Assembly (NCBI GenBank): GCA_963843375.1
Contig: CAWJKT010000011.1
Coordinates: 32,001-96,000, forward strand
DNA: 64,000 nucleotides
Direction of reading: 5' to 3'
From: an uncultured Pseudomonadota bacterium
GTDB lineage: Bacteria > Oederibacteriota > Muellerivitia > Muellerivitales > Muellerivitaceae
Numbering within the stretch: the first letter of the stretch is position 1; each line of letters begins with the position of its first letter. The notes below the pieces were generated by a model. It was not told the DNA's origin. It did no database searches and saw nothing but the letters and a program-made list of their open reading frames with translations. The translations under genes were made by a program, and so were the position numbers. Positions 14,074 through 28,418 of this stretch are shown here, piece after piece.

Positions 14074-14742
14074 ATGAAATTCGGAATCATTGGATCGGGT
14101 GTAGTCGCACAAACATTGGGAACCAAGCTGGTGGAACTGGGCCATGAGGTTTTCTTAGGTACCCGCGACCCCCAGAAGCTGGACGAGAAAAAAAACATGG
14201 CTGGAAGCCTGAACGAGTGGCTAGTCGCGGTCAAAAATAAAGCCAAGGTCGTTACCTTCAAAGAAGCCGCTGGCCAAGGTGAACTTTTGATTAACGCCAC
14301 CCACGGGCAGGCTTCGGTCGAAGCCCTTCAGTTGGCGGAGGCCGGCAAAGTGGGCTCCAAGTTGCTCATCGATACGGCTAACGAACTGGACTTCAGCAAG
14401 GGTGCACCCCACGCACTGGCTAGCGAGGCCCGGTCGGTGGCGGGAAACATCCAGGCGGCCTTTCCCAATCTCAAGGTGGTGAAATGCTTTAACACCATCG
14501 GGGCACCTGTTATGGTCAACCCTAAGATGCTTCATGGCGGCGACCATACGATTTTCCTCTCCGGAAACGACTCTGGCGCCAAAACGCAGGTAACGGAACT
14601 TCTCAAGTCCTTCGGCTGGACCGATATCCTTGACCTGGGGGACATCTCGGCTGCCCGCGGGCAGGAGATGTACATGGGAATGTGGGTAAGGCTATACGGT
14701 TCTTTGAAGAACGGCATGATCAACATCAAGGTTCAGAGATAA
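14074..14742 (+). CDS. NADP oxidoreductase (F420-dependent/dinucleotide-binding family)
   Basis: GIIGSGVVA Rossmann motif, VVKCFNT, DLGDISAAR; SD GGAGG. Confidence 0.85.
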   Translation: MKFGIIGSGVVAQTLGTKLVELGHEVFLGTRDPQKLDEKKNMAGSLNEWLVAVKNKAKVVTFKEAAGQGELLINATHGQASVEALQLAEAGKVGSKLLIDTANELDFSKGAPHALASEARSVAGNIQAAFPNLKVVKCFNTIGAPVMVNPKMLHGGDHTIFLSGNDSGAKTQVTELLKSFGWTDILDLGDISAARGQEMYMGMWVRLYGSLKNGMINIKVQR

Positions 14743-14770
14743 GAATGCTAAAACAATCAAGGAGGAAGGA

Positions 14771-15433
14771 ATGAGCACGGATCAACGTGTGGATATATTC
14801 ATCAATGTTCATAAGGGATTGCGGCGGGGGCTTTTGGGCTTCGCCCTCAAGATAGGCCAGTTAGATTGGGCGGATGAGGCCGAAGTGAAATCCGTGGGCG
14901 AGGAGTTCAAGAACCTGCTTCATTTCTTGAGGGAGCATGCCGCAAACGAGGACGATATCCAGTTTCCCCTGCTTGAGGAACGAGTTCTGGGAGCTACCTC
15001 CAGGGAGCAAGAAGACCATCGAAAGCTGGAAAAGGAACTGGACCAACTGGAAATGGACTGGTCTCAAGCCCTTCAAAGCCCGGATCGAGAGATCCCGGGT
15101 TACCAGTTCTATATGGGTTTCAACCGGTTCCTTTCCGGATACCTGGCCCACATGGACCGTGAAGAAAATGAAATCACTGGAGCTTTTTACCGGCACTTTT
15201 CCGACGACGAGATCGCGACCGGCTTCAAAAAGATTATCTCCCGCACTTCGGCCCAGGACATGGGAATGATGTTTGGTTTCATGATCCCGGCTATGAACGG
15301 GGAGGAGAGGTTTGTCTTTCTTTCCAACTTGAGAATGACGGCGGCTCCCGAGGTTTTCGGAAAGGTCAAGGGCTTGGCCCAAAAGGTGCTGTCGCCGATA
15401 GATTGGGAAAAACTTTCGGCCCGGTTGGGATGA
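14771..15433 (+). CDS. hemerythrin-domain protein
   Basis: VHKGLRR, HAANED, EDH and HMDREE metal-ligand pattern. Confidence 0.8.
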   Translation: MSTDQRVDIFINVHKGLRRGLLGFALKIGQLDWADEAEVKSVGEEFKNLLHFLREHAANEDDIQFPLLEERVLGATSREQEDHRKLEKELDQLEMDWSQALQSPDREIPGYQFYMGFNRFLSGYLAHMDREENEITGAFYRHFSDDEIATGFKKIISRTSAQDMGMMFGFMIPAMNGEERFVFLSNLRMTAAPEVFGKVKGLAQKVLSPIDWEKLSARLG

Positions 15434-16371: not shown

Positions 16372-16731
16372 ATGAATATTTTGCTTTGGGTAGTCCAAGG
16401 TTTGTTGGCGGCGGCCTTTTTAATGGCCGGGCAAATGAAGGTTTTTTCCTATGAAAAGTACAAAGCCATGGGAGGCCCCAACACACCCTCCCGGGGATTG
16501 GTCCGATTTATTGGATTAAGCGAAATCGCGGGGGCATCGGGAGTCATCCTTCCCTTGGCAACGGGTGTATTAACATTCCTTACCCCGATAGCGGCCGTGG
16601 CCTTAGCGATCGTGATGGTTCTGGCCCTGGGCTTTCACGCCATGCACAAGGATCCCATCGGTAAACTCGCTCCCGCTTTGGTGTTATTGGCCCTGAGCGT
16701 TTTCGTGGCCTGGGGAAGAATGGAGTATTAA
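16372..16731 (+). CDS. DoxX-family membrane protein
   Basis: MNILLWVVQGLLAAAFLMAGQMK...FIGLSEIAGASGVILP; SD GGAGG. Confidence 0.85.
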   Translation: MNILLWVVQGLLAAAFLMAGQMKVFSYEKYKAMGGPNTPSRGLVRFIGLSEIAGASGVILPLATGVLTFLTPIAAVALAIVMVLALGFHAMHKDPIGKLAPALVLLALSVFVAWGRMEY

Positions 16732-16763
16732 TTTTTTAGTTTGGGATTATTCGGAGATAAAAC

Positions 16764-17768
16764 TTAAGGATTTTTCTGGCGTATGGTTTCCAATGAGAAA
16801 AGGGATTCCAATACCTTCAGGTTGTCCGCCAACCGGGGGTAGTTGCCCCCGCCCTGGTCCTGCAACTCTAAGAGAAGCTGACGGATGATCTCAATATAAC
16901 CTTCCAGCCAGCCCAAGCCGTGAAAAGGGGGCTGGCGCGATCCCAGGTTGTTGTCCTTCCTTGGCAATAAAGTGCGGCTGCCGCCCTTGCCCAACCAGAT
17001 GCCGTCCGGGGCCATGAAATTCCAAGTGGCCGACTGTTGGGTGCCGATGAGGGTGATCTCAAAATCGTTGGTGGTGCCGTGGAAAGTTTTGGAAATGGAG
17101 GCCAAGGCCCGGCGGCCTCCGGAAAATTGCAGGTTCAAGTGAACGTGGGTATCCCGGTGGGAGGCTTCGGCGTTGGCGTAGGACAGCCAAGCCGTTCCCT
17201 TGAAACTGGGTTCGCTCATGAGGAAGGCCGCTGTATCCGCCCAATGGACGCCGATGTCAATGAGGGCGTCGGATCCGCCGCTAAGCGCCGGATCGTTTTT
17301 CCAAGGGTGGGGCTTGGGTGAGGGCTCCAAGGTTTTCTGGGCGGCGGAGGACTGCCAGTAGTGCCCCTCGATGGAAATTAACTCGCCGAACTCCCCGGTT
17401 TCCAGCATTTGTTTCAAGGTTTGAGGCCCCCACATCTGGTGATAGCCGTGGCAGACGGCCACGGGAGTTCGGATTAGTTTCAGGGATTCGATCTCCGTCA
17501 GATTCACGCAGGCGGGTTTTTCCACCACCATGGCCTTAAACCCCGCTTTCTCGCCTTCCAGAATGGATTGGGCATGCAGGCCGTGGGGATTAGCGATGAA
17601 TAGGATGGGGTTGTTAGTCTTAGGGGAAATGTCCGGTTTTTGCTTGCGGCTATGGGGAAGAGTTTCTTGAATGCCCCAGTCTGGATACTGAAGAGAGAGA
17701 ATGGCTAGGCTTTTCTGGAAGGCCTGGCCCGCCATGCCCCGGCCAAGAATGAAGGGGGTGATGGTCAT
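16764..17768 (-). CDS. Gfo/Idh/MocA family oxidoreductase
   Basis: ILGRGMAG, NPHGLH, VEKPA, GGSDALIDIGVHWAD. Confidence 0.85.
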   Translation of the reverse strand: MTITPFILGRGMAGQAFQKSLAILSLQYPDWGIQETLPHSRKQKPDISPKTNNPILFIANPHGLHAQSILEGEKAGFKAMVVEKPACVNLTEIESLKLIRTPVAVCHGYHQMWGPQTLKQMLETGEFGELISIEGHYWQSSAAQKTLEPSPKPHPWKNDPALSGGSDALIDIGVHWADTAAFLMSEPSFKGTAWLSYANAEASHRDTHVHLNLQFSGGRRALASISKTFHGTTNDFEITLIGTQQSATWNFMAPDGIWLGKGGSRTLLPRKDNNLGSRQPPFHGLGWLEGYIEIIRQLLLELQDQGGGNYPRLADNLKVLESLFSLETIRQKNP

Positions 17769-17797
17769 TTAATCCTCATTAAAGTTACTTTTAAAAA

Positions 17798-17887
17798 TGG
17801 CGGAGAGAGAGGGATTCGAACCCCCGTTACGATTGCTCGTAAATCTGATTTCGAGTCAGACGCATTCGACCACTCTGCCATCTCTCC
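17798..17887 (-). tRNA. tRNA-Ser (anticodon CGA), encoded CCA end
   Basis: Minus strand reads GGAGAGATGGCAGAGTGGTCGAATGCG-TCTGA-CT-CGA-AA-TCAGA, long variable arm, GGGGG-TTCGAAT-CCCTC, TCTCTCC-G-CCA. Confidence 0.97.
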
Positions 17888-17889
17888 GG
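17847..17889. repeat. att core copy 1 (43 bp; 5' half of tRNA-Ser plus 2 nt of leader)
   Basis: GATTTCGAGTCAGACGCATTCGACCACTCTGCCATCTCTCCGG, identical to 24410-24452. Confidence 0.95.
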
Positions 17890-17895
17890 ATGTCG

Positions 17896-17919
17896 AAACC
17901 CTTTTGTTTAAAAGGGTTT
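17896..17919. repeat. att-proximal hairpin between the int stop and the tRNA
   Basis: AAACCCTTTT-gttt-AAAAGGGTTT, 10-bp stem. Confidence 0.6.
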
Positions 17920-17932
17920 TACTACTTCTGCT

Positions 17933-19033
17933 TTAGGCCTGGACTACCTGATCGGTGCTCCGTGTCATAACCGTGTCATTCAACCTTTCTACCCGGCTTA
18001 AAGCGGCTTTCCGGTCCTCACGGTCTACCCGGTCATAGCGCCTAAAGACGGCGTAGGTCTTATGACCCGAGATCGACATGGTCACTGTGTCGCTGACCCC
18101 AGCTTTGCGGAGGTTTGTTATAGCGCAATGCCTTAAGTCGTGGAACCTAAAATTCTCGATTCCCGCCTTCCGGCAAGCCGTCCCAAAGCCATTCCTGGGG
18201 TCTTTAACCCGCTTTCCTTGGAAGAAAAACACGTAAGGGCTTCCCAGGGTCCTGGGTATCCGTTGAAACAAGGCTATCAGCCTTTTGTTCAACGGTATTT
18301 CCCGCTTTTCCTGGGTCTTGGTGTCGGCGGCTTCCAGGGTGATGACCTCGTTTTTGAGGTCCACCTGATCCCACCTTAGCCCCAAGATTTCCCCCCGCCT
18401 CATCGCGGTCCAATAAGCCAGTTCCACGATTCTCTGCAAGTGGGGAGGACAGCAGGCCAGCAAAGCCTGGTACTCCTCGGGGGTCAAAGTCCTGTCCCTG
18501 GATTGTTCCTTAAAGTGTTGAAGCCCCAAAATCGGGTTGCGCTCCAACTGCCTGTTTAAAACCGCCCGGCTCACAATGGTTTTCAAACAGGCCACGTCCC
18601 GGTTAAGGGTTGCGTTCTTTAAGGTCTTGCCCGACTTAACCTGGCTTCCTTGTTGCCGCCTTTGAGTCAGGTAGGCGTCCACCAAGTCCACCGTTAAGCT
18701 TTCCAAGGGCCGGGTTCCAAAGTAGGCTCTCAGCCTTTTCACGATCTGAACGTCGTTCCTAAAAGATTTTTTCCGGGCCTTGGAATAGGCCAGGAAGGAA
18801 TCCGCCGCGTCATTGAAACTGACACCCGGCTTATCCACCTCTAGGTATTTCTCGTTCACGACTTCCTGATAGTGTTCGGCCAAAACCTTCTTGGCTTGGG
18901 CTAAAGGGATTTGTCCTAAACGGACCCTTTTGCGCTTTCGCAACCCTCCTTCTTTGACGAAGTAATCTAAAAAATAACCCCCTTCATCCCTTCTTAGATG
19001 TTGGGGTAACCCATGGACATTAGGTTTACTCAT
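17933..19033 (-). CDS. int: tyrosine recombinase / phage-type integrase
   Basis: Complete catalytic set TAMRRGE, KT, FHDLRH, SGHK, RRYD; basic N-terminal arm-binding-like segment; adjacent to att. Confidence 0.95.
   Translation of the reverse strand: MSKPNVHGLPQHLRRDEGGYFLDYFVKEGGLRKRKRVRLGQIPLAQAKKVLAEHYQEVVNEKYLEVDKPGVSFNDAADSFLAYSKARKKSFRNDVQIVKRLRAYFGTRPLESLTVDLVDAYLTQRRQQGSQVKSGKTLKNATLNRDVACLKTIVSRAVLNRQLERNPILGLQHFKEQSRDRTLTPEEYQALLACCPPHLQRIVELAYWTAMRRGEILGLRWDQVDLKNEVITLEAADTKTQEKREIPLNKRLIALFQRIPRTLGSPYVFFFQGKRVKDPRNGFGTACRKAGIENFRFHDLRHCAITNLRKAGVSDTVTMSISGHKTYAVFRRYDRVDREDRKAALSRVERLNDTVMTRSTDQVVQA
17962..17986 (+). repeat. putative integrase arm-type site (tandem GTGTCAT)
   Basis: GTGTCATAACCGTGTCATTCAACCT; 23/25 match to 24214-24238, with an inverted copy at 24058-24076. 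Confidence 0.7.
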
Positions 19034-19296
19034 GAAACCCTCCTAATGTCCCCCTCAGCAAGAGGCATTGTATCAGCACCCCCCATCCCTATGGAAAGGG
19101 GCTTTTGGAAAACCCTTAAAAAAACAGAATGCCAAACCCTAGGATGCCGCCCCATCTTCACGAACGGCAGTTGTCCGGTCAGTCTCCAATGGTGGACGGT
19201 TCTAACCGACACTCCAGCCATTTTGGCCACCTGCTCGTCCGACATAAGATAGTCTTGATTCTGCCCCCGACGGTCACGTCCGCTACGGTTCGTCAT
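19030..19296 (-). CDS. excisionase-like HTH protein
   Basis: YLMSDEQVAKMAGVSVRTVHHWRLTGQLPFVKMGRHPRV (HTH_17/MerR-like); SD AGGAGG; ATGA overlap with int. Confidence 0.8.
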   Translation of the reverse strand: MTNRSGRDRRGQNQDYLMSDEQVAKMAGVSVRTVHHWRLTGQLPFVKMGRHPRVWHSVFLRVFQKPLSIGMGGADTMPLAEGDIRRVS

Positions 19297-19643
19297 GGCC
19301 TACCTCCTGAAATATATGGTTTAAAAATAAATGAACCCGAAGGGGTCAAACCTTCGGGGAAAGGTGTGGAAAACCCCGCCTGTCCCGTCAGGGACACTAA
19401 GGGGGGTTTTCCACGGTGTTGCAGTTCGTCTTTCATCTTTACTTCTTCCACTCCCACGCCCGCGCCTACTGTTTGGCTGTTCAAGAGGCCAGCCCCCACT
19501 CCCGTATTACAGTCATCAGATACTGATACTGTGGGAGTGGGGGCTGGCGTCGCCGGACAACCAAACTCCTTGTAGGCGCGGGCGTTTCCGTGGATTTTCG
19601 CTTTAAGCTGTTTTAAGTCCTGCTTTAAGTTTTTCGGGTTCAT
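19293..19643 (-). CDS. hypothetical protein whose coding sequence contains three strong DNA hairpins
   Basis: SD AGGAGG and ATGA overlaps at both ends; low-complexity product. Confidence 0.5.
   Translation of the reverse strand: MNPKNLKQDLKQLKAKIHGNARAYKEFGCPATPAPTPTVSVSDDCNTGVGAGLLNSQTVGAGVGVEEVKMKDELQHRGKPPLVSLTGQAGFSTPFPEGLTPSGSFIFKPYISGGRP
19336..19548. repeat. cluster of three inverted repeats (origin-like)
   Basis: Stems 19336-19343/19351-19358 (8 bp), 19366-19377/19403-19414 (12 bp, with an inner 6-bp stem) and 19488-19503/19533-19548 (16 bp perfect). Confidence 0.8.
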
Positions 19644-20253
19644 GCCGTGGCCTCCTGGGGCCCTTCTTCCGGCTTGATCGCTCTTAGGATGGGGTCTTTT
19701 ACGAAGGGAAGGTAGCCGCCCTCCAGGTTCACCCAGGGCACCCGTATGAAGGGAAGCCGGTCCACCTTCTCGAAAAAGGAAAAGCCCCAGAGGTTCTGGT
19801 TCCTGGGGTCATTCCTGAGGAAGGTCCCCAGCCCTTCCAGCATCCTCAGCGCATGGGGCTTGTCCCGGCTGACCACCAACCGGAAGGCCCCCGGGAAATC
19901 CCTGGTCAGGTTGAGAACCATACCGACCATCTTCTCCCGGTTGTAGGCCGTATGCTCGTACTCCAGAACAAAGGCCTGGGTCCTGCCTTCCAGGGTTCCT
20001 ACGAAAAAACCGTCCGGGGTCCGGTAGTGGACCCGGCGAAGCCTGGTCCCTGCCAAGTCCCACCCCCGTCCGGCTTCCAGGTCCATCTTCCAATCCATCC
20101 TCAGGCCACAGCGCATTTCGTAGTCCGAAAGCCAGGTAAGCCCCTCCAGGCCCCCTTCCCGTTCAATTTGGATTCTCATAGCGAGAACTCGCTTGTCGTG
20201 CTCCCTCTCGAATAGGTTGATATGGGGGGAACGTACTTCCTGGGAAATGAGGA
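19640..20253 (-). pseudogene. Replic_Relax-like (PD-(D/E)xK-type) protein, C-terminal part, split by IS21
   Basis: HINLFEREHD...WLSDYEMR...RTPDGFF...AFVLEYEHT pattern; ORF-track residues upstream of 20253 are IS sequence. Confidence 0.6.
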
Positions 20254-20385
20254 TGTAAACGCCGGTCCAATAGTGTGACGGTCTAGAGAGGGCAAAAAGG
20301 CGGTCGAAAAGTGTGACACTCCCCGAAATTCCCTGGAAGATGTGGGTTTTCAAAGATGAAAACCACGCCTCCAGGAGGAAAAGGA

Positions 20386-21897
20386 GTGTACAAGGACATG
20401 GACCGATGGACCGAAATCCGCAAGAAAATCCTGGTGGAGGGGGTCTCCAAACGCCAGGTGATGGAAGAAGAAGGCATCCACTGGGAAACCCTCAAGAAAA
20501 TACTCGCCCATAGCCAACCCCCGGGCTACCGAATGTACCGGGAGAGGTCACAGCCCAAGATTGGGCCCTTCCTGGGCCGCATCAAGCAAATCCTTCAGGA
20601 CGACAAGCACGTCCACAAAAAACAACGACATACGGCCAAGCGCATTTTTGAGCGCCTGCGGGATGAGGATGGTTACACCGGCGGCTATAGCCAGGTGAAA
20701 AAAGCCGTCCAGGGGTTCAAGCAAAAGAATAGCGAGGTCTTCGTGCCTTTGATCCATCGGCCCGGGGAGGCCCAGGTGGACTTTGGACACGCCCTGGTCA
20801 AACTCAACGGTGTGTTGGTGAAACGGCCTTTCTTTGTGATGGCACTTCCGTATTCGGATGCTTTTTTCGTCCAGATGTTTGAGCGGGAAAGCACGGAGTT
20901 CGTGTGGGAAGGCCATATCCGGGCCTTCGAATATTTTGGCGGCGTGCCCTGGCGGATCAGCTACGACAATGCCAAGACCCTCGTGACGAAGATCGCCGGG
21001 GTACACCAACGGATTTTGACCAAAAGTTTCCAGCAATTGGAGAGCCATTACCTCTTCGATCACCACTTCTGCACGATACGCCGTGGCAATGAAAAGGGCG
21101 TCGTGGAAGGCGGGGTGAAATACGTCCGCCTGAACTTCATGGTCCCGGTTCCACAGGTGGGAAACCTGGATGAACTGAACGAGCAGTTGGAGGTGAAATG
21201 CCGGGAGGACTTGAAGCGCAAATTGCGGGGGAAGGGTCTACCCAAGGTGCAGCTTCTAGACGAGGATAAGGCCCATTTCAGGCCTTTGCCGGCCACTCCC
21301 TTTGACGCCTGTCTGAAACAGTCCACGACAGCCACGTCTTTGTCCCTCGTGCGTTTCGACACCAACGACTATTCCGTTCCTTCCGAATGGGCACACCATC
21401 CGGTGGTGGTGAAGGGGTACATCAAGCGAGTGGATATCTTCCACAAGGACAGGCTCATCGCGACTCACGATCGCCTTTGGGGAAAGGAAGGTGTGGTCTT
21501 CAATCCGGTGCATTATTTAGCGGTTTTGGAAGGGAAACCGGGAGCCCTCGATCATGCCCGGCCCCTGGAAGACTGGAACCTGCCGGAAAGTTTTCCCCTC
21601 CTGCGCCGCCGCATGGAAGCCATGGAAAGGCACCATGGTGAAGGGACACGGGAATTCATCAAGACTCTGCGCCTCTTGGAGAAATATTCCCTCTCGCGGC
21701 TCACCCGTGCGGTGAAGAAAGCTGTGGGAATGGAAATCTATACCCGGGACGCCGTCGCCCAGTTGCTCTACCCCAGGGAGGATTACAGGCTGACCACCTT
21801 CAGCCTTGCCGGTCGTGAGCACTTACGACGGGTTCAAGTGGCCCGGACGGATCTTTCGGCCTACCGGGAGCTGATGGTTGTGGGAGGTGAAGCGTGA
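20386..21897 (+). CDS. istA: IS21 transposase
   Basis: KQRHTAKRIFERL, PGEAQVDFG, YDN, EKGVVEGGV, VRFDTNDYSVP; GTG start after GGAGG. Confidence 0.95.
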   Translation: MYKDMDRWTEIRKKILVEGVSKRQVMEEEGIHWETLKKILAHSQPPGYRMYRERSQPKIGPFLGRIKQILQDDKHVHKKQRHTAKRIFERLRDEDGYTGGYSQVKKAVQGFKQKNSEVFVPLIHRPGEAQVDFGHALVKLNGVLVKRPFFVMALPYSDAFFVQMFERESTEFVWEGHIRAFEYFGGVPWRISYDNAKTLVTKIAGVHQRILTKSFQQLESHYLFDHHFCTIRRGNEKGVVEGGVKYVRLNFMVPVPQVGNLDELNEQLEVKCREDLKRKLRGKGLPKVQLLDEDKAHFRPLPATPFDACLKQSTTATSLSLVRFDTNDYSVPSEWAHHPVVVKGYIKRVDIFHKDRLIATHDRLWGKEGVVFNPVHYLAVLEGKPGALDHARPLEDWNLPESFPLLRRRMEAMERHHGEGTREFIKTLRLLEKYSLSRLTRAVKKAVGMEIYTRDAVAQLLYPREDYRLTTFSLAGREHLRRVQVARTDLSAYRELMVVGGEA

Positions 21898-22667
21898 GCG
21901 AATCCAAAAAGACGCTCTTGCTGGAACACCACCTCAAAAAACTCAAGCTGCCTACCATGCAGCGGGAGTACGACAAGATGGCCCAACTCTGCCGCACAGA
22001 ACGCAGTGACTATCCACAATATCTGCTCAAATTGGCCGAGATGGAGCTTCTAGACCGGGAACGCCGGGCCAAGGAGAGGCGCATCCGCGACGCCAACTTT
22101 CCCGTGCTCAAAACTTTGGACACGTTCGACTTCAAGGCCCAGCCTTCGATCAACCAGGAATTGACGCGGGAACTCATGCGGGGCGAGTACATCGACAAAA
22201 AAGAAAACGTCCTGCTGATCGGCAATTCGGGAACAGGTAAAACCCATTTGGCCACGGCGCTGGCCTACCAGGCCTGCTGTCAGGGCCGGGCGGTGAAGTT
22301 CTTCTCCGTGACCGGCCTGGTCACCGAACTTCTGGAGCGCCGCGAGGAAAAACAATTGGCCAAGTTCCATCGGCAGTTGGCCAGGCTCCACCTAATCGTT
22401 TTGGATGAATTGGGTTACGTACCGTTCACCAAGCCGGGAGCGGAGTTGCTGTTTGAGGTGGTCAGCAAGGCCTATGAGCGAACCAGCCTGATGGTAACGA
22501 CGAATCTTCCCTTTGAAAACTGGGTGGAAATCATGGGTTCCGAAAGGATGACGGGGGCCCTTATTGACCGTTTGACCCATCGGGTGCATATTCTGGAGGC
22601 CAACGGCCAAAGCTTCAGGCTGGTGGAAGCGAAGAAACGGCTGAGACGTAAAGACAAGAAGGATTGA
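21894..22667 (+). CDS. istB: IS21 helper ATPase
   Basis: Walker A GNSGTGKTHLA, Walker B LIVLDELGY, TTNLPF, DRLTH. Confidence 0.95.
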   Translation: MSESKKTLLLEHHLKKLKLPTMQREYDKMAQLCRTERSDYPQYLLKLAEMELLDRERRAKERRIRDANFPVLKTLDTFDFKAQPSINQELTRELMRGEYIDKKENVLLIGNSGTGKTHLATALAYQACCQGRAVKFFSVTGLVTELLERREEKQLAKFHRQLARLHLIVLDELGYVPFTKPGAELLFEVVSKAYERTSLMVTTNLPFENWVEIMGSERMTGALIDRLTHRVHILEANGQSFRLVEAKKRLRRKDKKD

Positions 22668-22767
22668 TAGGTTCAACCAACGACCATATACCCTAAAGGC
22701 GTATGGAAGGCGGGGGGTGTCACACTTTTGGACCGCCCACCGTCACACTTTTCGACCGGCGTTAGCA

Positions 22768-22828
22768 GCTGCATGTGTTCCTGGTTACTGATGAAGCCTT
22801 CCAAGTGATGTTTTTTGTTTTTTTTCAT
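22768..22828 (-). pseudogene. N-terminal fragment of the IS-split Replic_Relax-like gene
   Basis: ATG at 22828 reads MKKNKKHHLEGFISNQEHMQ and joins in frame to LLISQEVR... at 20253 if the IS is removed. Confidence 0.6.
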
Positions 22829-22842
22829 TTTTCTGGGGTTCT

Positions 22843-23202
22843 TTAGTGCCCCGCATAGCGGGTTGGACCGGTTGAGAAAAGACCGGCCATTTCAAGAAGA
22901 AGATTTTTGGTTGTTTTTGGATGAATTTTCAATCCTTCGGCCCAATAGCTCACCGATGCGGGGATCGGGTTTTTTCCCTGTTCCCACTTCTTCACCGTTT
23001 CAGGGCTAACCAGCATCAACTTCGCGAATTGTGGTTGGGAAACCTTCAAGATTTTCCGGGCTTCCTTGATGTCGGCTCCTGTGGTTTTGATGAGAAGTTC
23101 TTCCACCTTCACATTGGCTTTTTCCCCACGCGCGAATTTCAAACCTTCACGAAGGCTTGCTTCAAATTCTTTCAAATCCTTTTTTTTATTTGCCTTTCTC
23201 AT
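22843..23202 (-). CDS. HigA-like XRE-HTH antitoxin
   Basis: SLREGLKFARGE...IKEARKILKVSQPQFAKLMLVSPETVKKWEQGK; overlaps the 3' end of the toxin gene. Confidence 0.85.
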   Translation of the reverse strand: MRKANKKKDLKEFEASLREGLKFARGEKANVKVEELLIKTTGADIKEARKILKVSQPQFAKLMLVSPETVKKWEQGKNPIPASVSYWAEGLKIHPKTTKNLLLEMAGLFSTGPTRYAGH

Positions 23203-23590
23203 GTTGCTCTCCCTTTTTCTCATAAGCCTTTTTGAAGGCTTCTGCCATTGACTTCAAAATCTTCTTTTCATCCGGAGTCAGGTCGGACTTGGTTCGATGG
23301 TTATAAACGGCTTGGAGGTAAATATCATGTTGAACCCGGAAAAGAAGATAGATAAACCTGAACCCACCGCTTTTTCCTAGATTTCTGCTGGGTGAACCCG
23401 CCCGGCCTTTAATCCAACCTCCGGTTCCTTTTATTTCGTCCAGTTTTCCTGACTCGAACTCTATTTTAATCCCATCGCGTATTTCATTGTGGAGACGGGG
23501 TTCAAGTTTTTCGAGGCTTTTTAGTTCCTTCTCGTATCCGGGAAGTCGAACCAAGCGATACTTGGTTTCGGCAATTTGTAGTTCTTCCAT
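23186..23590 (-). CDS. RelE/HigB-family toxin
   Basis: IKGTGGWIKGR...GKSGGFRFIY...KSDLTPDEKK; toxin-first gene order. Confidence 0.85.
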   Translation of the reverse strand: MEELQIAETKYRLVRLPGYEKELKSLEKLEPRLHNEIRDGIKIEFESGKLDEIKGTGGWIKGRAGSPSRNLGKSGGFRFIYLLFRVQHDIYLQAVYNHRTKSDLTPDEKKILKSMAEAFKKAYEKKGEQHEKGK

Positions 23591-23640
23591 GATCGCCCCT
23601 AAACGCTATAGTATTTAATACCATACCCAGAGTTGCTTAT

Positions 23641-23907
23641 TCAAGACCCTTTAGTAGAAAAGGCCATATGACCGCCCAAACCTTTGACGATCTTTGCTAT
23701 ATCCACCCATATTTGGAATGCTTCGCGATCAGCCATGACTTTCTTTAATTGCCGAAGAGGTATTTTTGTTTTCTTGGCGATAACCTTAAGGCCGCCCTCT
23801 TTTTCGACCACATTCCAGAAGGCTTCCTGCAAAAGGTCTGCCTTACCGGAATCCAAGCCGAGGGTTAAGTGTTGAGCTCCCAATTTCCGGCATCCCTTGT
23901 TTTTCAT
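23641..23907 (-). CDS. small HTH protein resembling addiction-module antidote proteins
   Basis: AFWNVVEKEGGLKVIAKKTKIPLRQLKK...IAKIVKGLG helix pattern. Confidence 0.5.
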   Translation of the reverse strand: MKNKGCRKLGAQHLTLGLDSGKADLLQEAFWNVVEKEGGLKVIAKKTKIPLRQLKKVMADREAFQIWVDIAKIVKGLGGHMAFSTKGS

Positions 23908-24057
23908 TTTTCTTGGGCTTTCTTTTGATGATTTGATCCTATTCGGATTCTAATGAGCAACAGAAGGATTTGACAAGTTCTTAGGAAGGAAATATCAATG
24001 ACAGAAAGTCAGATGTATTTTTTTTCCATTTCGTGCGGGAGTTTCTATGATTGACTC

Positions 24058-24076
24058 GAATGACACCGTTATGACA
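24058..24076 (-). repeat. putative integrase arm-type site (inverted copy)
   Basis: Reverse complement TGTCATAACGGTGTCATTC, 18/19 match to 17963-17981. Confidence 0.65.
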
Positions 24077-24213
24077 GGGGCTTATCTTTTTCTGGCAATT
24101 CAACTCATTTTTGAATCAACAAAGTCAGATGCTCTATTGAACACCAATGAACACCTAAAGAATAAGAGGTCTATTCATCTTGCTGGATCTCAGATTCATT
24201 TCAATGCCTTTTG

Positions 24214-24238
24214 GTGTCATATACGTGTCATTCAACCT
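24214..24238 (+). repeat. putative integrase arm-type site (direct copy)
   Basis: GTGTCATATACGTGTCATTCAACCT, 23/25 match to 17962-17986. Confidence 0.7.
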
Positions 24239-24409
24239 CGGTTTTTACCGGTTTTGACGGCCACGGACCGGTATTGGCCGGTGATTCAAAAAAAAGGCCT
24301 CGGCCCGTTTTGGTGTTAAAACCATTACAGGCAAAGGCCAATTTAGTGCTGATGGGGACAAGAAATTTTTACGACTTACGACTTCAAAAACCAAAAATCC
24401 ATCTGGGAA

Positions 24410-24452
24410 GATTTCGAGTCAGACGCATTCGACCACTCTGCCATCTCTCCGG
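24410..24452. repeat. att core copy 2 (displaced 5' half of tRNA-Ser)
   Basis: Identical 43-bp repeat of 17847-17889; tRNA homology stops within the 3' strand of the anticodon stem. Confidence 0.95.
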
Positions 24453-24503
24453 GTCAAAAATAGGTTGTTTGGTTGTTCACCGATTTACAGTATCGGTGGA
24501 GTT

Positions 24504-24534
24504 AAAAAAAGCGCGTCCCCCAAAGGGGATGCGC
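24504..24534 (-). terminator. intrinsic terminator on the minus strand
   Basis: GCGCATCCCC-tttg-GGGGACGCGC stem followed by T7. Confidence 0.8.
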
Positions 24535-24539
24535 CTTTG

Positions 24540-24812
24540 ACAGCGGCTTATTGTAACCGAAAAAGGGATGATTTTGTTACCGTCAAAAATCCAGGTGGCG
24601 TACAGTTCCGGCGTCTTCTTGAGGACTTCACGGGGATAAACGGCGGTATGGTCAACGTTCCATTCCTGGTTCAAAACCACGTCTAAAACATGGTTCCGGT
24701 GGTCAACGTACATGGTCAGGAAAGCCTCGTTCCGTTTCCCGCCGATGTATTGCTTGAAGTAGGCCACTACATCTTCCGGGCCTGAAACAACCGCCCTCTT
24801 TTGCTCTAAGAG
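24540..24812 (-). pseudogene. radC: RadC (JAB domain) remnant
   Basis: VSGPEDVVAYF...NEAFLTMYVDHRNHVL...VDHTAVYPREV present; no N-terminus and no HNHPSG metal motif. Confidence 0.75.
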
Positions 24813-24813
24813 G

Positions 24814-26010
24814 TTAAGCCAGTAGTTGAGATGGGTTGGACAAGAAAAACTCCTCTAAATGCATCCCACCGGTTCCGACCATCAATACTTTTGCCTTCGG
24901 ATTTTTCTTGAGGAAAGCCTCCATCCCTTTCGCCTGTCCACTTTTGCCGGATTTCACTTCCAACCCCCAAGATTTGGCGGCGGTCTTCATCACGAAATCC
25001 ACTTCCATGTCATGGTCACGCCAATAAAGCACTTCCCCGAAGGAACGGTCCAAATGATTCAAAAGATGGGCCCCGACGGCGTTTTCCACCAACCGGCCCC
25101 AGGACTCTCCATCCTTCTTGGCTTGGGCAAAGGATAAGGCCCGATGGGCCGAAACCAGGGCGTTATTCCAAAGGATGAGCTTAGGGCTACTGCCCCTCTT
25201 GCCGGGCTTACCGCTCCGATAGGATTCCAGGCCGCTGACGATAAAAGCGCTCTCCAGAAGTTTCAAGTAATGCGCCAAAGTGGTGGTGTTCCCGGCTTCC
25301 TGCAATTGCCCGAGCATTTTGTTGTAGGAGAATATTTGGGCCGGATAACCCGCCGCCAGCCCGAACAGGTGCCCCAACAAGGCGGGCTTTGCCACGGTTT
25401 GGAGTTGAAGCACATCCCGCGACAACACCGTTTCCACTAATGAATTGGTGACGTAGTGTTTCCAGTTATTTTCATCCTTGCGGAATTGAGCCGAACCAGG
25501 GTACCCGCCGAAAAAGATCCATTCCTCCAGGTTCCAGCCGAAAGCGGCCTTCATTTCTCCGTAACCCCAATGACCGCAACGGTACTGAAAGAAACGTCCC
25601 GCAAGACTTTCTGTCAGGCTTTTTTGGACCAGCAAGGCCGATGAACCCAATAGCAAAACAAGGAGGCCTTTGCGCTCATGGAGTTCCCTGTCCCAAAGAA
25701 GCTTGACGGTTTCGCTCCACCCACGGACTTTTTGGATTTCGTCCAGGACCAACAGGACTTTTTTGCGGGGTCCGCATTTGGTAAGGGCCAAGTCCCATTG
25801 GGCATGTATCCACTCGGGTCCCGGTGGAAGGGGTGCATCCGCCGCCGCGAAGACCGTTTCGCCTTTCCATTCGTCGGCTATCTGCCGTGCAGCGGTGGTC
25901 TTTCCCGTTTGCCGGGGGCCTACCAGCACATGGATCACCTTGGTGTATTTATCCAACCCCGCTAGGATTTCCTTTACGACGGGATGTTGGTAATTGGAGT
26001 TTTTCGCCAC
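24814..26010 (-). CDS. AAA-family ATPase with DUF4143-like C-terminal nuclease-fold domain
   Basis: GPRQTGKTT, LDEIQK, LGSS, GGYP, ENAV, YWRD..EVDF, EVKSG. Confidence 0.9.
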   Translation of the reverse strand: MAKNSNYQHPVVKEILAGLDKYTKVIHVLVGPRQTGKTTAARQIADEWKGETVFAAADAPLPPGPEWIHAQWDLALTKCGPRKKVLLVLDEIQKVRGWSETVKLLWDRELHERKGLLVLLLGSSALLVQKSLTESLAGRFFQYRCGHWGYGEMKAAFGWNLEEWIFFGGYPGSAQFRKDENNWKHYVTNSLVETVLSRDVLQLQTVAKPALLGHLFGLAAGYPAQIFSYNKMLGQLQEAGNTTTLAHYLKLLESAFIVSGLESYRSGKPGKRGSSPKLILWNNALVSAHRALSFAQAKKDGESWGRLVENAVGAHLLNHLDRSFGEVLYWRDHDMEVDFVMKTAAKSWGLEVKSGKSGQAKGMEAFLKKNPKAKVLMVGTGGMHLEEFFLSNPSQLLA

Positions 26011-26020
26011 GGGTTCCTCG

Positions 26021-26062
26021 ATTACTCAGTCATTGAGTAATAATACTCAATGACTGAGTAAT
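26021..26062. promoter_or_regulatory. nested palindromic operator upstream of the AAA ATPase
   Basis: ATTACTCAGTCATTGAGTA-ataa-TACTCAATGACTGAGTAAT: perfect 19-bp inverted repeat whose arms are each TACTCA-N5-TGAGTA. Confidence 0.8.
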
Positions 26063-26089
26063 TTTCAATCTTCTTTGTTTGAGAGGGGC

Positions 26090-26707
26090 TTAGTCGCCTT
26101 GGATCGCTTCTAGGTATGGTCCCAAGACCTTATCGACCCGGCAGATCTTCGAGAACCTAGTGAGTTCATCTGTTTTCTTCCACTTGCTTCTCCAATAGTT
26201 ACGGAGAGCCTCCAGTACCGTATCGAGCCCAACGACAGTGCGAAACTTAAAACAATCCGCAAGGGTCTTTTCACGGGAATAAATCCTGACTTTTACCCCG
26301 TCGATTAGATGTTCCTCAATCCCTTCTGAGAAAGCCTTACCGGAAAAATGGAATACCCGAATAGGGGGATATTCCATTTTGGGAGTCCAAGCCCCCCTTT
26401 TGACCGCAAGGTATATCTCATGTGGTATCTGGGTGGTCATTTCGTGGAAGGAAAGGGCTGATATCAGGCAAAGGACCCCTTCCGGAACCTTTTGGATGAC
26501 GGTCACAAGATCAGGGTTGGCCAGGGGCGGCATTGTGGAAAGGCGGTATACCCCCCGGCCTAACTGATCCAGGACTTTGGCGTCCCGCATGGAATAAAGC
26601 TTTACCGGATGGATGCCAAGCCTTATGGCATTCATCGTCGAAAGGATTCCCCCGTTTTTTCGGAAAATGCCGATTTCTTTTATGAATTGTTTTTCCAGCT
26701 TATTCAT
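26090..26707 (-). CDS. type IV TA antitoxin, AbiEi family (no AbiEii partner here)
   Basis: wHTH with LGRGVYRL, GVLCLISALSFHEMTTQIP, YSREKTLADCFK. Confidence 0.85.
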   Translation of the reverse strand: MNKLEKQFIKEIGIFRKNGGILSTMNAIRLGIHPVKLYSMRDAKVLDQLGRGVYRLSTMPPLANPDLVTVIQKVPEGVLCLISALSFHEMTTQIPHEIYLAVKRGAWTPKMEYPPIRVFHFSGKAFSEGIEEHLIDGVKVRIYSREKTLADCFKFRTVVGLDTVLEALRNYWRSKWKKTDELTRFSKICRVDKVLGPYLEAIQGD

Positions 26708-26710
26708 GAC

Positions 26711-26756
26711 TGATAGTTTCCGATACATTTATATACTTCTGTATAGGTTACTATCA
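26711..26756. promoter_or_regulatory. inverted-repeat operator of abiEi
   Basis: TGATAGTTTCCGATACA ... TGTATAGGTTACTATCA (14/17), immediately upstream of the ATG at 26707. Confidence 0.55.
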
Positions 26757-26823
26757 TACTATGATAAGCATTTGTCAAGCAGTCAGGGGTAGCCCCTGCT
26801 CCCCTCTTAGGCCCCTCGCTACT

Positions 26824-26876
26824 CTCAAAATCTATCGACCTCACGGTCATGTCGGTTCAAGTCCGACCTCGCACCA
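26824..26876 (+). pseudogene. 3' half of tRNA-Leu(CAA), att-like remnant
   Basis: CT-CAA-AA loop, TCTAT, variable arm GACC-tcac-GGTC, T arm GTCGG-TTCAAGT-CCGAC, CTCGC-A-CCA; 5' half absent and acceptor strand 2 nt short. Confidence 0.8.
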
Positions 26877-26976
26877 ATTTTTTTGCTTCAGAATCGTTTC
26901 TAAAAACTTCCAAAAACATTGTCCTCAGCGGATTTTAAGGCCCTTGTCCGGTTCCAAAGACCGTTCAGGAGCCTTT

Positions 26977-27525
26977 TTAGTTTGGGACGGTTAGGGAGGG
27001 TTCCGGAGGGTGACCTTTCCCCAAAAACTGATCCAAAAATATGTTAGCTTTGGAAATCAGATTTGGGAGGAAAAAATGGCAAAGAAACGGTTTTTGTCCG
27101 AACAGGTTGAAGAAGGAACGGGGTCCGCCCACGGGGCATTTCATCTTATCCAACTCCGCGTCCGCCAAAGTCTGGGCCTCATTATTCAGGGCCGTGAAGT
27201 CATATTTGGAGCAGGGTACTCCGACTTGGGAAAGCTCCACTTCCACTTGGCGACGGTCATCGCAAGGTGCCGACGTCCCTTTGTATTGTGGCGCGATCCC
27301 AGTGATTCGGCGGGCGACGGGCGTGGACTTGGGCGGCTCGGTGCCGATGGAACCTTTTTCCATTACCGGCGTGACCGTGGGAGTATCAGTGGGCGGGTTC
27401 GCTTGCTGTTTCTCCCCCTTGTCCTGGCAGGAAAGGCCGACTAACGTTCCCATTCCAAACGACATCAAGAGAGTAATGATTTGAAGAGGGTTATGTATTC
27501 TCAGACGTTGGGAAGCCAATCTCAT
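26977..27525 (-). CDS. putative lipoprotein, C-terminus possibly truncated or chimeric
   Basis: SD AAGGAG, lipobox-like VGLSC, Pro/Thr linker and Cys-containing domain; composition changes after CPVGGP. Confidence 0.45.
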   Translation of the reverse strand: MRLASQRLRIHNPLQIITLLMSFGMGTLVGLSCQDKGEKQQANPPTDTPTVTPVMEKGSIGTEPPKSTPVARRITGIAPQYKGTSAPCDDRRQVEVELSQVGVPCSKYDFTALNNEAQTLADAELDKMKCPVGGPRSFFNLFGQKPFLCHFFLPNLISKANIFLDQFLGKGHPPEPSLTVPN

Positions 27526-27633
27526 AAACCACTCCTTTATAGACCGAACTTTAAATACGGCGGTATTGTTAAGGGGGATTCGTCTGCCTGGACAAGGCGG
27601 GAAATGTTATGATGATGTAACTCTTTTGACCGG

Positions 27634-28297
27634 ATGACACCTCCAACCATGAAGAAAAACTCCATCGCCCACCTGCGCCGCGAATACCGAAACCGCGGGC
27701 TCCTCGAGAAAGACGCGCCTTCCAATCCTTATATACTTTTTGAAAAGTGGTTCAAGGAAGCCTTGAAAGTGAAGGCCTTGGACGCCAATGCCATGGCCCT
27801 GGCCACCGTTTCATCGGCGGGAAAACCTTCATTACGGACCGTACTTTTAAAGGGTTATGATTCCAAAGGTTTCGTTTTTTATACCAATTACGAAAGCCAT
27901 AAGGGCAGGGATCTGGGCGCAAGGCCGGTGGCCAGCCTGCTTTTTTTCTGGCCACAATTAAGCCGCCAAATCCGCATCGACGGGCCGGTGAAAAAGGTGC
28001 CCGATTGGGAATCGGACGAGTATTTCCAAACTCGGCCCCGGGGAAGCCAGTTGGGAGCTTGGGCTTCGAATCAAAGCCGGGTGATCGGGAACAGAGAATT
28101 CTTGGAAAAACAAATGAAAGCGCTGGAAAAAAATTATGAAAACCAATTGGTTCCCCGGCCATGCCCATTGGGGAGGGTACCGGGTGACTCCCGAAAGTAT
28201 TGAGTTTTGGAAGGGAAGACCCAACCGCTTGCATGACCGGTTGGTTTACCATAAGAAAAAGGCTGGAGGATGGAACCGAGAACGGCTTTCTCCTTGA
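27634..28297 (+). CDS. pdxH: pyridoxamine 5'-phosphate oxidase (frameshift near 28160)
   Basis: [29 protein letters not shown]; second frame continues HWGGYRV...[13 protein letters not shown]...RERLSP*. Confidence 0.9.
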
Positions 28298-28418
28298 AAG
28301 TTAATTAAACTGGGGTTGCCTTGTCTAAGACCCGGCTATTTGCCGGGCAGCATCGGAGGCCATTGGGTCATCAGCACACCAAGGCAGGTGCCTGGCAATG
28401 AAAGCAATTTAGGAAAAT

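Follow-up and report, generated by a model that had tools for sequence, protein, structure and literature searches.

A 6.5-kb genomic island on the 5' side of tRNA-Ser(CGA) in an uncultured soil bacterium of candidate phylum FCPU426

How can a tRNA gene remain intact and be transcribed when a mobile element lies on its promoter side? This question is raised by tRNA-Ser(CGA) in a 64,000-nt stretch of DNA, called the window here. The first-pass annotation had placed an integrated element upstream of this tRNA, with its att repeat covering the 5' half of the gene, and had asked whether the genome holds another tRNA-Ser(CGA). A single copy was found among the 46 tRNAs of this MAG (32 contigs, 80% complete, 4% contamination); since the genome is a MAG, a second, unassembled gene is possible. 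The tRNA sequence was undegraded and identical to the tRNAs of relatives.

Table 1. Features of the island and its surroundings in the window
Feature	Position	Strand	Basis or remark
Intact tRNA-Ser(CGA)	17798..17887	-	ARAGORN; Rfam tRNA 62.4 bits; sole tRNA found in window
attR identity block, 2 leader bases + tRNA bases 1-41	17847..17889	-	43-nt exact repeat
10-bp hairpin between int stop and tRNA with a tail of just 3 U; weak processing or terminator-like element	17896..17919	-	fold
Tyrosine integrase (int), 366 aa, lambda-Int-like, catalytic residues present	17933..19033	-	PF00589 1.6e-25; phrog_1 2.4e-64; lambda Int 1Z1G
Arm-type site candidate P' (ATGACACGGTTATGACA), inside int codons for NDTVMTR	17963..17979	-	motif match; same placement in 4 paralogous islands
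88-aa HTH_17/MerR protein, excisionase-like	19030..19296	-	PF12728 8.8e-07; sub-threshold TIGR01764 excise (8.7e-05)
Predicted int promoter, extended -10 element TGATACAAT (33 nt upstream of int ATG)	19067..19075	-	single window match
Conserved ORF without family match, 116 aa	19293..19643	-	homologs at same place in G001 and G012 islands
Last 204 codons of a gene truncated by the IS (305 aa in G001)	19640..20253	-	tblastn of G001 protein
IS21-family insertion sequence, 2514 bp, TG...CA ends	20254..22767	+	IstB 4.3e-69, Mu-transpos_C_2, rve
istA, istB of IS21 copy	20356-21897, 21894-22667	+	Pfam
Toxin-antitoxin-like pair: RelE-like 134 aa (23186-23590), then HTH_3/MqsA-like 126 aa (22843-23223)	22843..23590	-	profile matches
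Arm-type site candidate P2, inverted orientation	24060..24076	+	motif match
Conserved left (P) attP arm, including GGCC hairpin and T8 run	24170..24409	-	near-identical in G001 (two copies), recognisable in G012
Arm-type site candidate P1, direct, 172-196 nt inside left end	24215..24231	-	motif match; repeat family D6
attL, displaced host 5' tRNA fragment, bases 1-41 + 2 leader bases	24410..24452	-	exact repeat
Mosaic of mobile-DNA remnants, 3.1 kb, between 5' fragment and native promoter	24453..27561	.	outside 6.5-kb element
Strong terminator in mosaic	about 24503-24535
tRNA-Leu(CAA) 3' fragment in mosaic	26824-26871
Native tRNA promoter TTGTCC-N19-AACAAT	27562..27596	-	homologous to relatives' TTGTCC-N18-TACAAT; now faces 182-aa ORF
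pdxH, ancestral divergent neighbour of tRNA, reads in two frames here	27649..28294	+	tblastn; tRNA neighbour in 11/12 relatives

The repeat search returned a direct repeat of 43 nt with 100% identity and a start-to-start distance of 6563 bp (attR and attL in Table 1). A 41-nt repeat pattern had exactly two matches in the window and none in 100 shuffles. On the tRNA strand, the repeat consists of CC (two leader bases) and tRNA bases 1-41, spanning the acceptor arm, the D arm, the 5' arm of the anticodon stem, the 7-base loop and two bases of the 3' arm. Both the repeat search and the sequence reading agree with the earlier description of the repeat as 2 nt of leader plus the tRNA from its 5' end through the anticodon loop. 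The int stop, compared with the tRNA end, likewise lies 45 nt upstream of the intact gene on the same strand, as had been reported. The 5' half of tRNA-Ser(CGA) is therefore at least partly element-borne, bases 1-41 lying inside the att identity block.

A repeat could also come from misassembly, or from local duplication without any site-specific recombination; the genome is a MAG, and Logan contigs break at the repeat. Both junctions were covered by contigs of two runs from two studies (X1, 17847-18605 and 23840-24439; X2, 17847-18514 and 23961-24339), the best-covering of which may be the source sample. Two further MAGs showed the same architecture, within contigs 2.05 and 1.61 Mb long. With an integrase beside the repeat, conserved arm sites and the G7/A7 footprint described below, such an origin is extremely improbable, and the artefact doubt of the first-pass annotation was dismissed. 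No attP or attB joints were detected for 17400-24900 in four public runs (X1, X2, X6 and X7), all represented by contigs, which drop rare forms.

The ancestral arrangement was seen in relatives. In 11 of 12, pdxH and a promoter stood directly upstream of tRNA-Ser(CGA), contiguous with an uninterrupted target, and pdxH was divergent, 120-400 nt upstream of the tRNA. Their recurring promoter is TTGTC(C/G)-N18-TACAAT, with a short leader ending in TTTGACCC. In G018, one contig terminates in pdxH, promoter and tRNA, and another opens with the tRNA and, after it, the same GFO-family gene. The sequence TTTCGTCCAT upstream of the relatives' tRNAs was considered as a pdxH start and rejected, as pdxH begins further upstream. 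An Rfam search (E up to 0.1) of 16500-28500 and of six relatives' loci returned the tRNA and chance matches only, so the relatives' leader unit belongs to no known family. Since the insertion-free relatives keep pdxH, promoter and leader beside the tRNA, the DNA between the repeats is a 5'-side insertion, and its boundaries are those given by the first-pass annotation, which had proposed empty-site relatives as a check.

The 5' arrangement was found at Ser-CGA in four genomes. In G001, of the same genus, the order was pdxH, 167 nt, a 43-nt fragment, 19.9 kb, int (87% identical) and tRNA. G012 carries an 11.3-kb homologous island at the same 5' site, its int being 78% identical, and at L061 a third int (86%) lies directly upstream of the tRNA. 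The intact tRNA of G001 has a G7·T66 mismatch, whereas its displaced fragment keeps A7; the 7:66 pair is Watson-Crick in all 12 insertion-free relatives. This difference reads as the footprint of a front-half swap. The footprint was seen in G001 only, the two repeat copies of the present genome being identical. Furthermore, the 19.9-kb island contains a second, internal left-arm copy with a decayed core, which points to a stacking of two related elements on the 5' side. In this respect it resembles tandem accretion of the CIME/IME type, from which the window differs: its element is single, and the adjoining mosaic shares no att arm with it.

The integrase scored 90.3 bits against PF00589 (curated cut-off 27.1). 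Its translation, aligned to XerC-like 4A8E and lambda Int, places R, HxxR, H and Y, the catalytic residues of the tyrosine-recombinase family, in AMRRGE, FHDLRHC, GHKT and RRY. Residues 25-333 align weakly with lambda Int 31-342 (E about 5e-05), the N-terminal region included. The strict pattern of a 17-nt arm motif had three matches in the 64-kb window, all within the element, and none in 100 shuffles. The final codons of int contain one predicted arm site, at a distance of about 100 nt from the crossover; on the opposite arm, two further sites stand about 170 and 350 nt from it. Four paralogous islands share this layout, which was noted at Ser-TGA, Arg-TCG and Asp. A loose pattern (2 mismatches) gave 27 matches genome-wide versus 19-34 in shuffles, so this total is uninformative, and weight is given to the strict matches in the window and to where sites fall at the ends of islands. 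A 90-aa ORF at 24047-24319 was rejected as a gene, since only its last 37 codons are conserved and these coincide with the attP arm.

By its sequence, the integrase is probably a lambda-type heterobivalent enzyme with predicted arm sites. The likeness to lambda Int/attP (1Z1G, 1Z1B, 5J0N) covers the N-terminus and the repeated arm-type motifs flanking the core, and an excisionase-like small HTH gene adjoins int. Unlike lambda, which uses an intergenic site, the element targets a tRNA anticodon loop, embeds a predicted arm site in the int coding sequence and has no phage genes. PICI satellites have doubled arm-site motifs in attP (tgTGTATTGCantgTGTATTGCa; PMC10111431); the reconstructed attP of the element's clade likewise has, clade-wide, a tandem doubled core of 7-8 bases, (A/T)ATGACAC, with an 11-nt period. 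Motif sequence, host phylum and element type differ.

We give a probability of about 0.85 to the following account of the 6.5-kb island as a whole. A tyrosine integrase would have recombined the element site-specifically into the tRNA-Ser(CGA) gene at its anticodon loop, the element's attP carrying the tRNA 5' half in place of the usual 3' half. The host 5' half and about 25 nt of leader would thereby have been stranded as a dead fragment (attL). The complete gene would have been rebuilt by joining the 5' half brought by the element to the 3' half of the host, immediately downstream of int.

Zhao and Williams (2002) are reportedly the first to have described islands with 5' tDNA fragments. The first-pass annotation overrated the rarity of this configuration, which is already catalogued as a minority type: Islander lists 159 among its 3919 islands (Hudson, Lau & Williams, PMC4383910), and S. 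meliloti has 9 among 88 (PMC11476347). PMC6563490 terms 5'-distal recombination "considerably less frequent". The element belongs to this known class. As in Islander 5'-type islands, the tRNA is intact, a 5' fragment lies upstream in the same orientation, the integrase lies between them and the identity block ends at the anticodon loop; the interval of 6563 bp is within 2-200 kb, and the target is uninterrupted in relatives. Particular to this element are the sharing of only two leader bases and the int stop 45 nt from the tRNA, so it brings no recognisable tRNA promoter. The locus offers a complete example with integrase, predicted attP arms and empty-site relatives. It makes two points directly testable, namely tRNA expression after promoter severance and the ease with which an integrase lineage switches between 5' and 3' halves. 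Tools for island detection that look for 3' fragments, or for a duplicate carrying a promoter, would put such islands in the wrong place, and the well-defined attP/attB pairs could serve integrase prospecting.

How, then, is the rebuilt tRNA transcribed? The proposal that it had been cut off from its former promoter was borne out and indeed understated, as the native promoter beside pdxH is now 9.7 kb away. The tRNA promoters that belong to the host itself follow the classical TTGACA-N17-TATAAT form, at 35-45 nt upstream. A sigma-70 promoter scan of 17700-19400 gave no match; within 1.5 kb upstream of the tRNA there was no sigma-70 match of at least 9/12, and the int promoter was the only candidate there. 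The int-tRNA spacers of 14 5'-type loci showed no common promoter in a sigma-70 scan. The spacers at two loci (L066, L067) have TAGAAT with a badly spaced -35. Of 19 int loci, 17 had TGnTA(A/C)AAT at 29-33 nt ahead of the int start codon (ATG). Given this conserved extended -10 before int and no tRNA promoter between int and tRNA, co-transcription is the best guess. We rate the chances as about even that the rebuilt tRNA is transcribed from the int promoter, through a leaky hairpin, and that the int-tRNA co-transcript would then be cut by RNase P and 3' processing enzymes.

The hairpin between int and tRNA (about -13 kcal/mol, z -2.5) has a stem that covaries in G001, G012 and L061. Termination of int transcripts at this hairpin is possible and speaks against efficient read-through. 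This terminator-like structure is one reason to consider that integration took place as described and the tRNA has its own unrecognised promoter, in the int 3' end or near the hairpin, independent of int. The same hairpin follows related int genes with no tRNA to feed (C9, C8:84977) and so probably ends int transcripts, and all 4 Ser-CGA islands preserve a block, AAGT(A/T)GTAA, immediately before the hairpin. However, this block lacks the invariant A2 and T6 of a -10 hexamer, no match was found to the sigma-70 consensus that the genome's own tRNA promoters follow closely, and 5'-type islands at Ser-TGA and Arg-TCG have no common motif in the int-tRNA spacer. An independent promoter is doubtful.

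The hairpin and the absence of a promoter are also consistent with a rebuilt tRNA that is poorly expressed or silent, the insertion being simply tolerated. A tRNA with a UGA anticodon is able to read UCG, and the genome has two tRNA-Ser(UGA) genes that could do so by wobble. However, UCG makes up 19% of Ser codons in 904 long ORFs, so tRNA-Ser(CGA) is likely needed. The arrangement recurs at Ser-CGA in the four genomes named above, and again at Ser-TGA, ahead of the sole Ser-GCT gene, and at 8 loci from further species. Together with the undegraded tRNA, this makes weak or absent expression improbable.

Co-transcription from the int promoter can also be viewed across the integrase clade (FCPU426). 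This clade uses either tRNA half at anticodon loops; of 16 loci in other species 11 were 5'-type, as were 3 of the 6 in the present genome. At the tRNA-Arg(TCG) loop, the 5' half is used in one genome and the 3' half in another. The reversed use of a tRNA gene, though rare, therefore predominates in one integrase clade of an uncultured phylum. Tentatively, the attP geometry of the clade may be fixed and fillable with either half, and the tRNA of 5'-type loci may be the last gene of an int operon driven by the extended -10. The geometry meant here runs from int, with an arm site inside it, over about 100 nt to a crossover in the anticodon loop, and the extended -10 promoter is likened to the host's stable-RNA promoters. 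If so, the supply of a much-used tRNA would be coupled to integrase transcription; constitutive int expression would be favoured and loss of the int promoter penalised, a form of host dependence. No description of int-tRNA co-transcription or of such dependence at tRNA-site islands appeared in the literature searched, a weak negative because phrases with the prime sign of 5' are unsearchable.

The cargo points to decay. The IS21-family copy has istA, for a DDE transposase, followed by istB, for the IstB ATPase, TG...CA ends and further copies in the genome, 100% identical on C8 (two) and 99.96% identical on C5; no target-site duplication was found at its ends. The N-terminal part of the 305-aa gene is absent from the window, true similarity beginning at the IS boundary, and its G001 homolog had no family match in profile scans that included PHROGs. 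Since the IS lacks a target duplication and the cut gene lacks its first ~100 codons, the 6563-bp unit is a rearranged remnant rather than the original element. An active IS21 copy and an adjacent deletion would have taken the start of this gene and probably other DNA. Because neither int nor the excisionase-like gene is damaged, and both att copies are whole, excision is still conceivable. No phage structural, packaging or lysis genes were found among 10 element ORFs searched against Pfam, or among 6 window ORFs and the G001 305-aa homolog searched against PHROGs; relaxase, coupling protein and type IV secretion genes were not found in the window element or among 22 G001-island ORFs. The toxin-antitoxin-like pair matched PF06296 (6.7e-06, just under cut-off), PF01381 (7.3e-06), TIGR03830 (8e-09, below cut-off) and phrog_5869 (3.5e-14). 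Beyond attL, a native-like leader stretch of about 25 nt is also found in the mosaic, together with a RadC fragment, a DUF4143 ATPase, AbiEi and a lipoprotein-like ORF.

The source assembly is a MAG of 4.05 Mb in 32 contigs with 80% completeness, and the window covers positions 32001-96000 of its contig C11. The sole tRNA gene of the window, tRNA-Ser(CGA), overlaps one copy of a 43-nt exact direct repeat, and the two copies lie 6563 nt apart (see the table). A 41-nt pattern of this repeat had two matches in the window and none in 100 shuffles. Read on the tRNA strand, the repeat comprises 2 leader bases and tRNA bases 1-41, spanning the anticodon loop (33-39) and 2 bases of the 3' stem arm; the repeat search and strand reading bore out, in every element, the first-pass annotation, which had described it as two leader nucleotides plus the 5' half of the tRNA through the anticodon loop. 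The tyrosine integrase gene (int) was also correctly placed: by the ORF coordinates, it runs in the direction of the tRNA and stops 45 nt short of the intact gene. Unrelated sequence continues past the distal repeat copy, and this copy is therefore a dead 5' fragment.

Coordinates of the element, its surroundings, and related islands and IS copies in the source genome (window positions unless a contig is named)
Feature	Position	Strand	Remarks
tRNA-Ser(CGA)	17798-17887	minus	
Repeat copy at intact tRNA	17847-17889		
Repeat copy, distal	24410-24452		
int	17933-19033	minus	last in gene order; PF00589, phrog_1 2.4e-64
Extended -10 element	19067-19075		TGATACAAT
Excisionase-like HTH_17 protein, 88 aa		minus	between 116-aa ORF and int
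116-aa ORF		minus	after truncated conserved gene
Conserved gene, last 204 codons		minus	after IS in gene order
IS21-family element	20254-22767		next in gene order after RelE-like pair; istA, istB, TG...CA ends
RelE-like + HTH (MqsA-like) pair	23590-22843	minus	family searches
Arm motif copy	17963-17979		within int codons for NDTVMTR
Arm motif copy, inverted	24060-24076		
Arm motif copy, direct	24215-24231		
RadC-like fragment	24477-24767		
DUF4143 AAA ATPase	24814-26010		
AbiEi-like gene	26090-26728		
tRNA-Leu(CAA) 3' fragment, 48 nt exact	26824-26871	plus	intact gene on contig C7
Lipoprotein-like ORF, 182 aa	within 24453-27561		faces old tRNA promoter
Native tRNA promoter	27562-27596		
pdxH	27649-28294		
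Further 5'-type islands (Ser-TGA, Arg-TCG)	among C11:206549-225554, C8:171778-180575		
Further 3'-type islands (Asp, Thr-TGT, CAT-anticodon)	among C6:219970-227246, C9:31181-32408 with C20:29560-29779, C8:84977-86056		Thr island seems to span the C20/C9 contig break
IS copies	C8:87689-90202, C8:175802-178315, C5:23288-25802		

To locate the ancestral site, the upstream DNA of the orthologous tRNA was read in 12 relatives. Empty-site relatives, to which the first-pass annotation had looked for confirmation, were found, with divergent pdxH directly flanking the tRNA at 120-400 nt in 11 of the 12. In seven of these 11 relatives, a promoter of the form TTGTC(C/G)-N18-TACAAT or TAGAAT recurred with ACCCCTCC after it, and the leader in most relatives ended in ...ACAAC..TA....TTTGACCC. 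In the window, the same promoter now lies beside the pdxH counterpart, which upheld the claim that the tRNA had been severed from its earlier upstream sequence. About 25 nt of native-like leader was kept immediately upstream of the window 5' fragment. In the relative G018, one contig ended with pdxH, the promoter, and tRNA bases 1-42, and a second opened with tRNA bases 19-90, after which came a HAD-like ORF and then the GFO-family gene that also lies downstream of the tRNA in the window. This arrangement fits an empty site on two contigs that overlap by 24 nt and are not joined. The comparison shows an insertion on the 5' side of tRNA-Ser(CGA), and the 5'-side integration read from the window alone was well supported by the empty sites and homologous islands.

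The pdxH gene of the window was split over two frames (27649-28173 and 28151-28294), by a frameshift or a sequencing error. In eight relatives (loci L011, L015, L018, L019, L020/L052, L021, L050, and L053), the transcribed tRNA-Ser(CGA) leader contained a unit of about 135-155 nt, 60-300 nt upstream. Its order was a copy of the leader end, tRNA bases 1-21/22, a GC hairpin, a covarying GACGAAAG/CTTTCGTC helix, and tRNA bases 23-32. The unit extended through the anticodon loop in G002, was tandemly doubled in G016, and had no Rfam matches. The unit resembles an ancient 5' fragment into which DNA was inserted at base 22/23, though it is conserved across genera.

A closely related int was located directly upstream of tRNA-Ser(CGA) in three other genomes, with the whole island visible in two of them. 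The order in G001, a relative of the same genus, was pdxH, 167 nt, a 43-nt fragment, 19.9 kb, int (87% identical), and the tRNA. The island of G012, another relative, was 11.3 kb long with a 78% identical int split over two frames. In this int (locus L047, contig C4, 1488-2586), residues 1-296 and 279-366 were matched in separate frames, and it is probably a frameshifted pseudogene or a sequencing error.

The G001 island retained a footprint of half replacement. Its intact tRNA carries G7 opposite T66, a wobble pair, and the displaced fragment has A7. The 7:66 pair was Watson-Crick in all 12 insertion-free relatives (A-T in nine, G-C in three). The simplest reading would be that the element, acquired from a host with a G7-C66 pair, substituted its own 5' half for that of G001. 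Identity in the repeat ended at base 41, so that, with the G7/A7 footprint, the crossover lies on the 3' side of base 7 and no further along than base 41. In the 3'-type paralogous islands, identity began at base 33-34, and these limits taken together place the crossover within the anticodon loop. Separately, the left arm of attP recurs at about 14560-14810 in the G001 island (L045, C2:1354000-1373999), this additional copy being preceded by a decayed core that retains only GAAATC. The G001 island may thus consist of two elements stacked together, with its qNor, ScdA/hemerythrin, Crp, and Fic genes in the distal one.

Int aligned with lambda Int over nearly its full length, and the catalytic residues were present. 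The ORFs scanned in the window element and the G001 island included no phage, relaxase, or secretion genes. A 17-nt doubled motif (ATGACACsnwTATGACA) occurred three times in the 64-kb window, always in the element, and never in 100 shuffles. The Ser-TGA, Arg-TCG, and Asp islands of the source genome showed the same layout: one motif lay in the int tail and another 157-181 nt in from the far end, and the Ser-TGA and Asp islands had, deeper inside, a third copy in inverted orientation. The 240-nt left arm was near-identical in G001 and recognisable in G012. From this layout, we infer that the motifs are candidate arm-type sites of a heterobivalent integrase. Outside the window, at C11:457505-457600, the int-tail arm motif TGACACGGATATGACAC was observed about 75 nt upstream of intact tRNA-Arg(ACG) without an int gene. 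This int tail was also present in three other species, where a 3' fragment of tRNA-Arg(ACG) follows it and Ala-CGC and Ser-GGA genes lie downstream.

The source genome contains six paralogous integrases, 62.7-66% identical to the window Int. Three integrase genes of this genome preceded an intact tRNA and shared its orientation (Ser-CGA, Arg-TCG, and Ser-TGA), with 41-43-nt 5' fragments 6.6, 8.7, or 18.9 kb further upstream. Two were followed by a co-directional 3' fragment, of Thr-TGT (C9) and of a CAT-anticodon tRNA (C8:84977), and one was convergent with intact tRNA-Asp, a 3' fragment lying 7.2 kb downstream. Scanning a single genome from each GTDB species gave 24 loci, of which 16 were from the candidate phylum FCPU426 at 59% identity or more. 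These 16 loci were classed by the tRNA or fragment adjoining int, their far ends lying beyond the 2.5-kb flanks, with G001 and G012 as the exceptions; int was directly upstream of a co-directional intact tRNA in 11 (Ser-CGA in three, Ser-TGA then Ser-GCT in eight) and was followed by a co-directional 3' fragment in five (Arg-TCG in one, Arg-ACG in three, Asp in one). Among the eight distant loci (28-48% identity), three were convergent on an intact tRNA and five had no nearby tRNA. The loci come from related species and do not represent independent events.

For tRNA-Arg(TCG), the 5' half (bases 1-43) was used in the source genome versus the 3' half (bases 33-80) in locus L055, and tRNA-Asp was used with both int orientations. 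The anticodon loop lay about 90-105 nt past the int-tail arm site in all configurations. The geometry is constant and the tRNA half carried varies, and 5' use dominates a clade that also employs 3' halves.

Earlier surveys list 159 islands with a 5' tDNA fragment versus 3760 with a 3' fragment in Islander (PMC4383910) and 9 of 88 at the 5' end in S. meliloti (PMC11476347). Krupovic et al., citing Zhao and Williams 2002, describe 5'-distal recombination as considerably less frequent (PMC6563490). The window island shares the 5' tDNA fragment configuration and belongs to this known, catalogued minority class. Its integrase and predicted attP are complete, and it carries no recognised tRNA promoter.

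The tRNA promoters of the source genome read TTGACA-N17-TATAAT and end 35-45 nt before the mature 5' end. A consensus scan of 17700-19400, a range that includes the int-tRNA spacer, found no such promoter; further scans gave none at 8/12 in the 420 nt upstream of the tRNA and none at 9/12 in 1.5 kb upstream. That an unrecognised promoter drives the tRNA is a possible but rather unlikely alternative. A looser regular-expression search detected the extended -10 element 33 nt before the int ATG, and 17 of 19 int loci had TGnTA(A/C)AAT at 29-33 nt ahead of the ATG, the other two having one-mismatch versions. A 10-bp hairpin (about -13 kcal/mol, z -2.5) was present in the int-tRNA spacer with no more than three U after it, and its stem covaried among four Ser-CGA islands. 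No obvious hairpin was seen by eye in the Ser-TGA and Arg-TCG spacers. Our best guess, with a probability of about one half, is that transcription of the rebuilt tRNA would start at the int promoter and pass a leaky hairpin, with processing afterwards.

Across 904 long ORFs, UCG made up 19% of the serine codons, and tRNA-Ser(CGA) was the only cognate tRNA for UCG detected in the genome. The uniqueness of this gene, raised in the first-pass annotation, held in that no other copy was found, in a MAG that is only 80% complete. Weak expression of the tRNA with compensation by tRNA-Ser(UGA) seems improbable, more so than an unrecognised promoter; read-through from int is preferred to both. In G001, the native promoter remains directed at the 5' fragment from 77 nt away and would read into the left arm of the island, which has a GGCC hairpin and a T8 run with a non-significant fold (z -0.8). 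In the window, the 5' fragment is preceded at 50 nt by a strong terminator (-30.7 kcal/mol, z -6.3).

The 3.1 kb separating this fragment from the native promoter (24453-27561) consists of unrelated mobile remnants, which resemble the leftovers of other islands, including a tRNA-Leu-specific one. Within the element, the gene abutting the IS encodes 305 aa in G001; the window keeps only the C-terminal two thirds, and the remainder is absent from the entire window. The missing N-terminal part therefore indicates that DNA was lost through IS-associated deletion or IS-IS recombination, and the 6563-bp unit is a remnant of a larger element. No target duplication was found around the IS. C8 has two copies with 100% identity, one of which lies within the Arg-TCG island, and C5 has one with 99.96%, giving at least four identical or near-identical copies including that of the window, two of them within integrase islands. 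An IS relative with 83% identity was observed on C9. The lake-water runs X6 and X7 also contained the IS, and the X7 coverage of the stretch comprised only the IS and the tRNA region.
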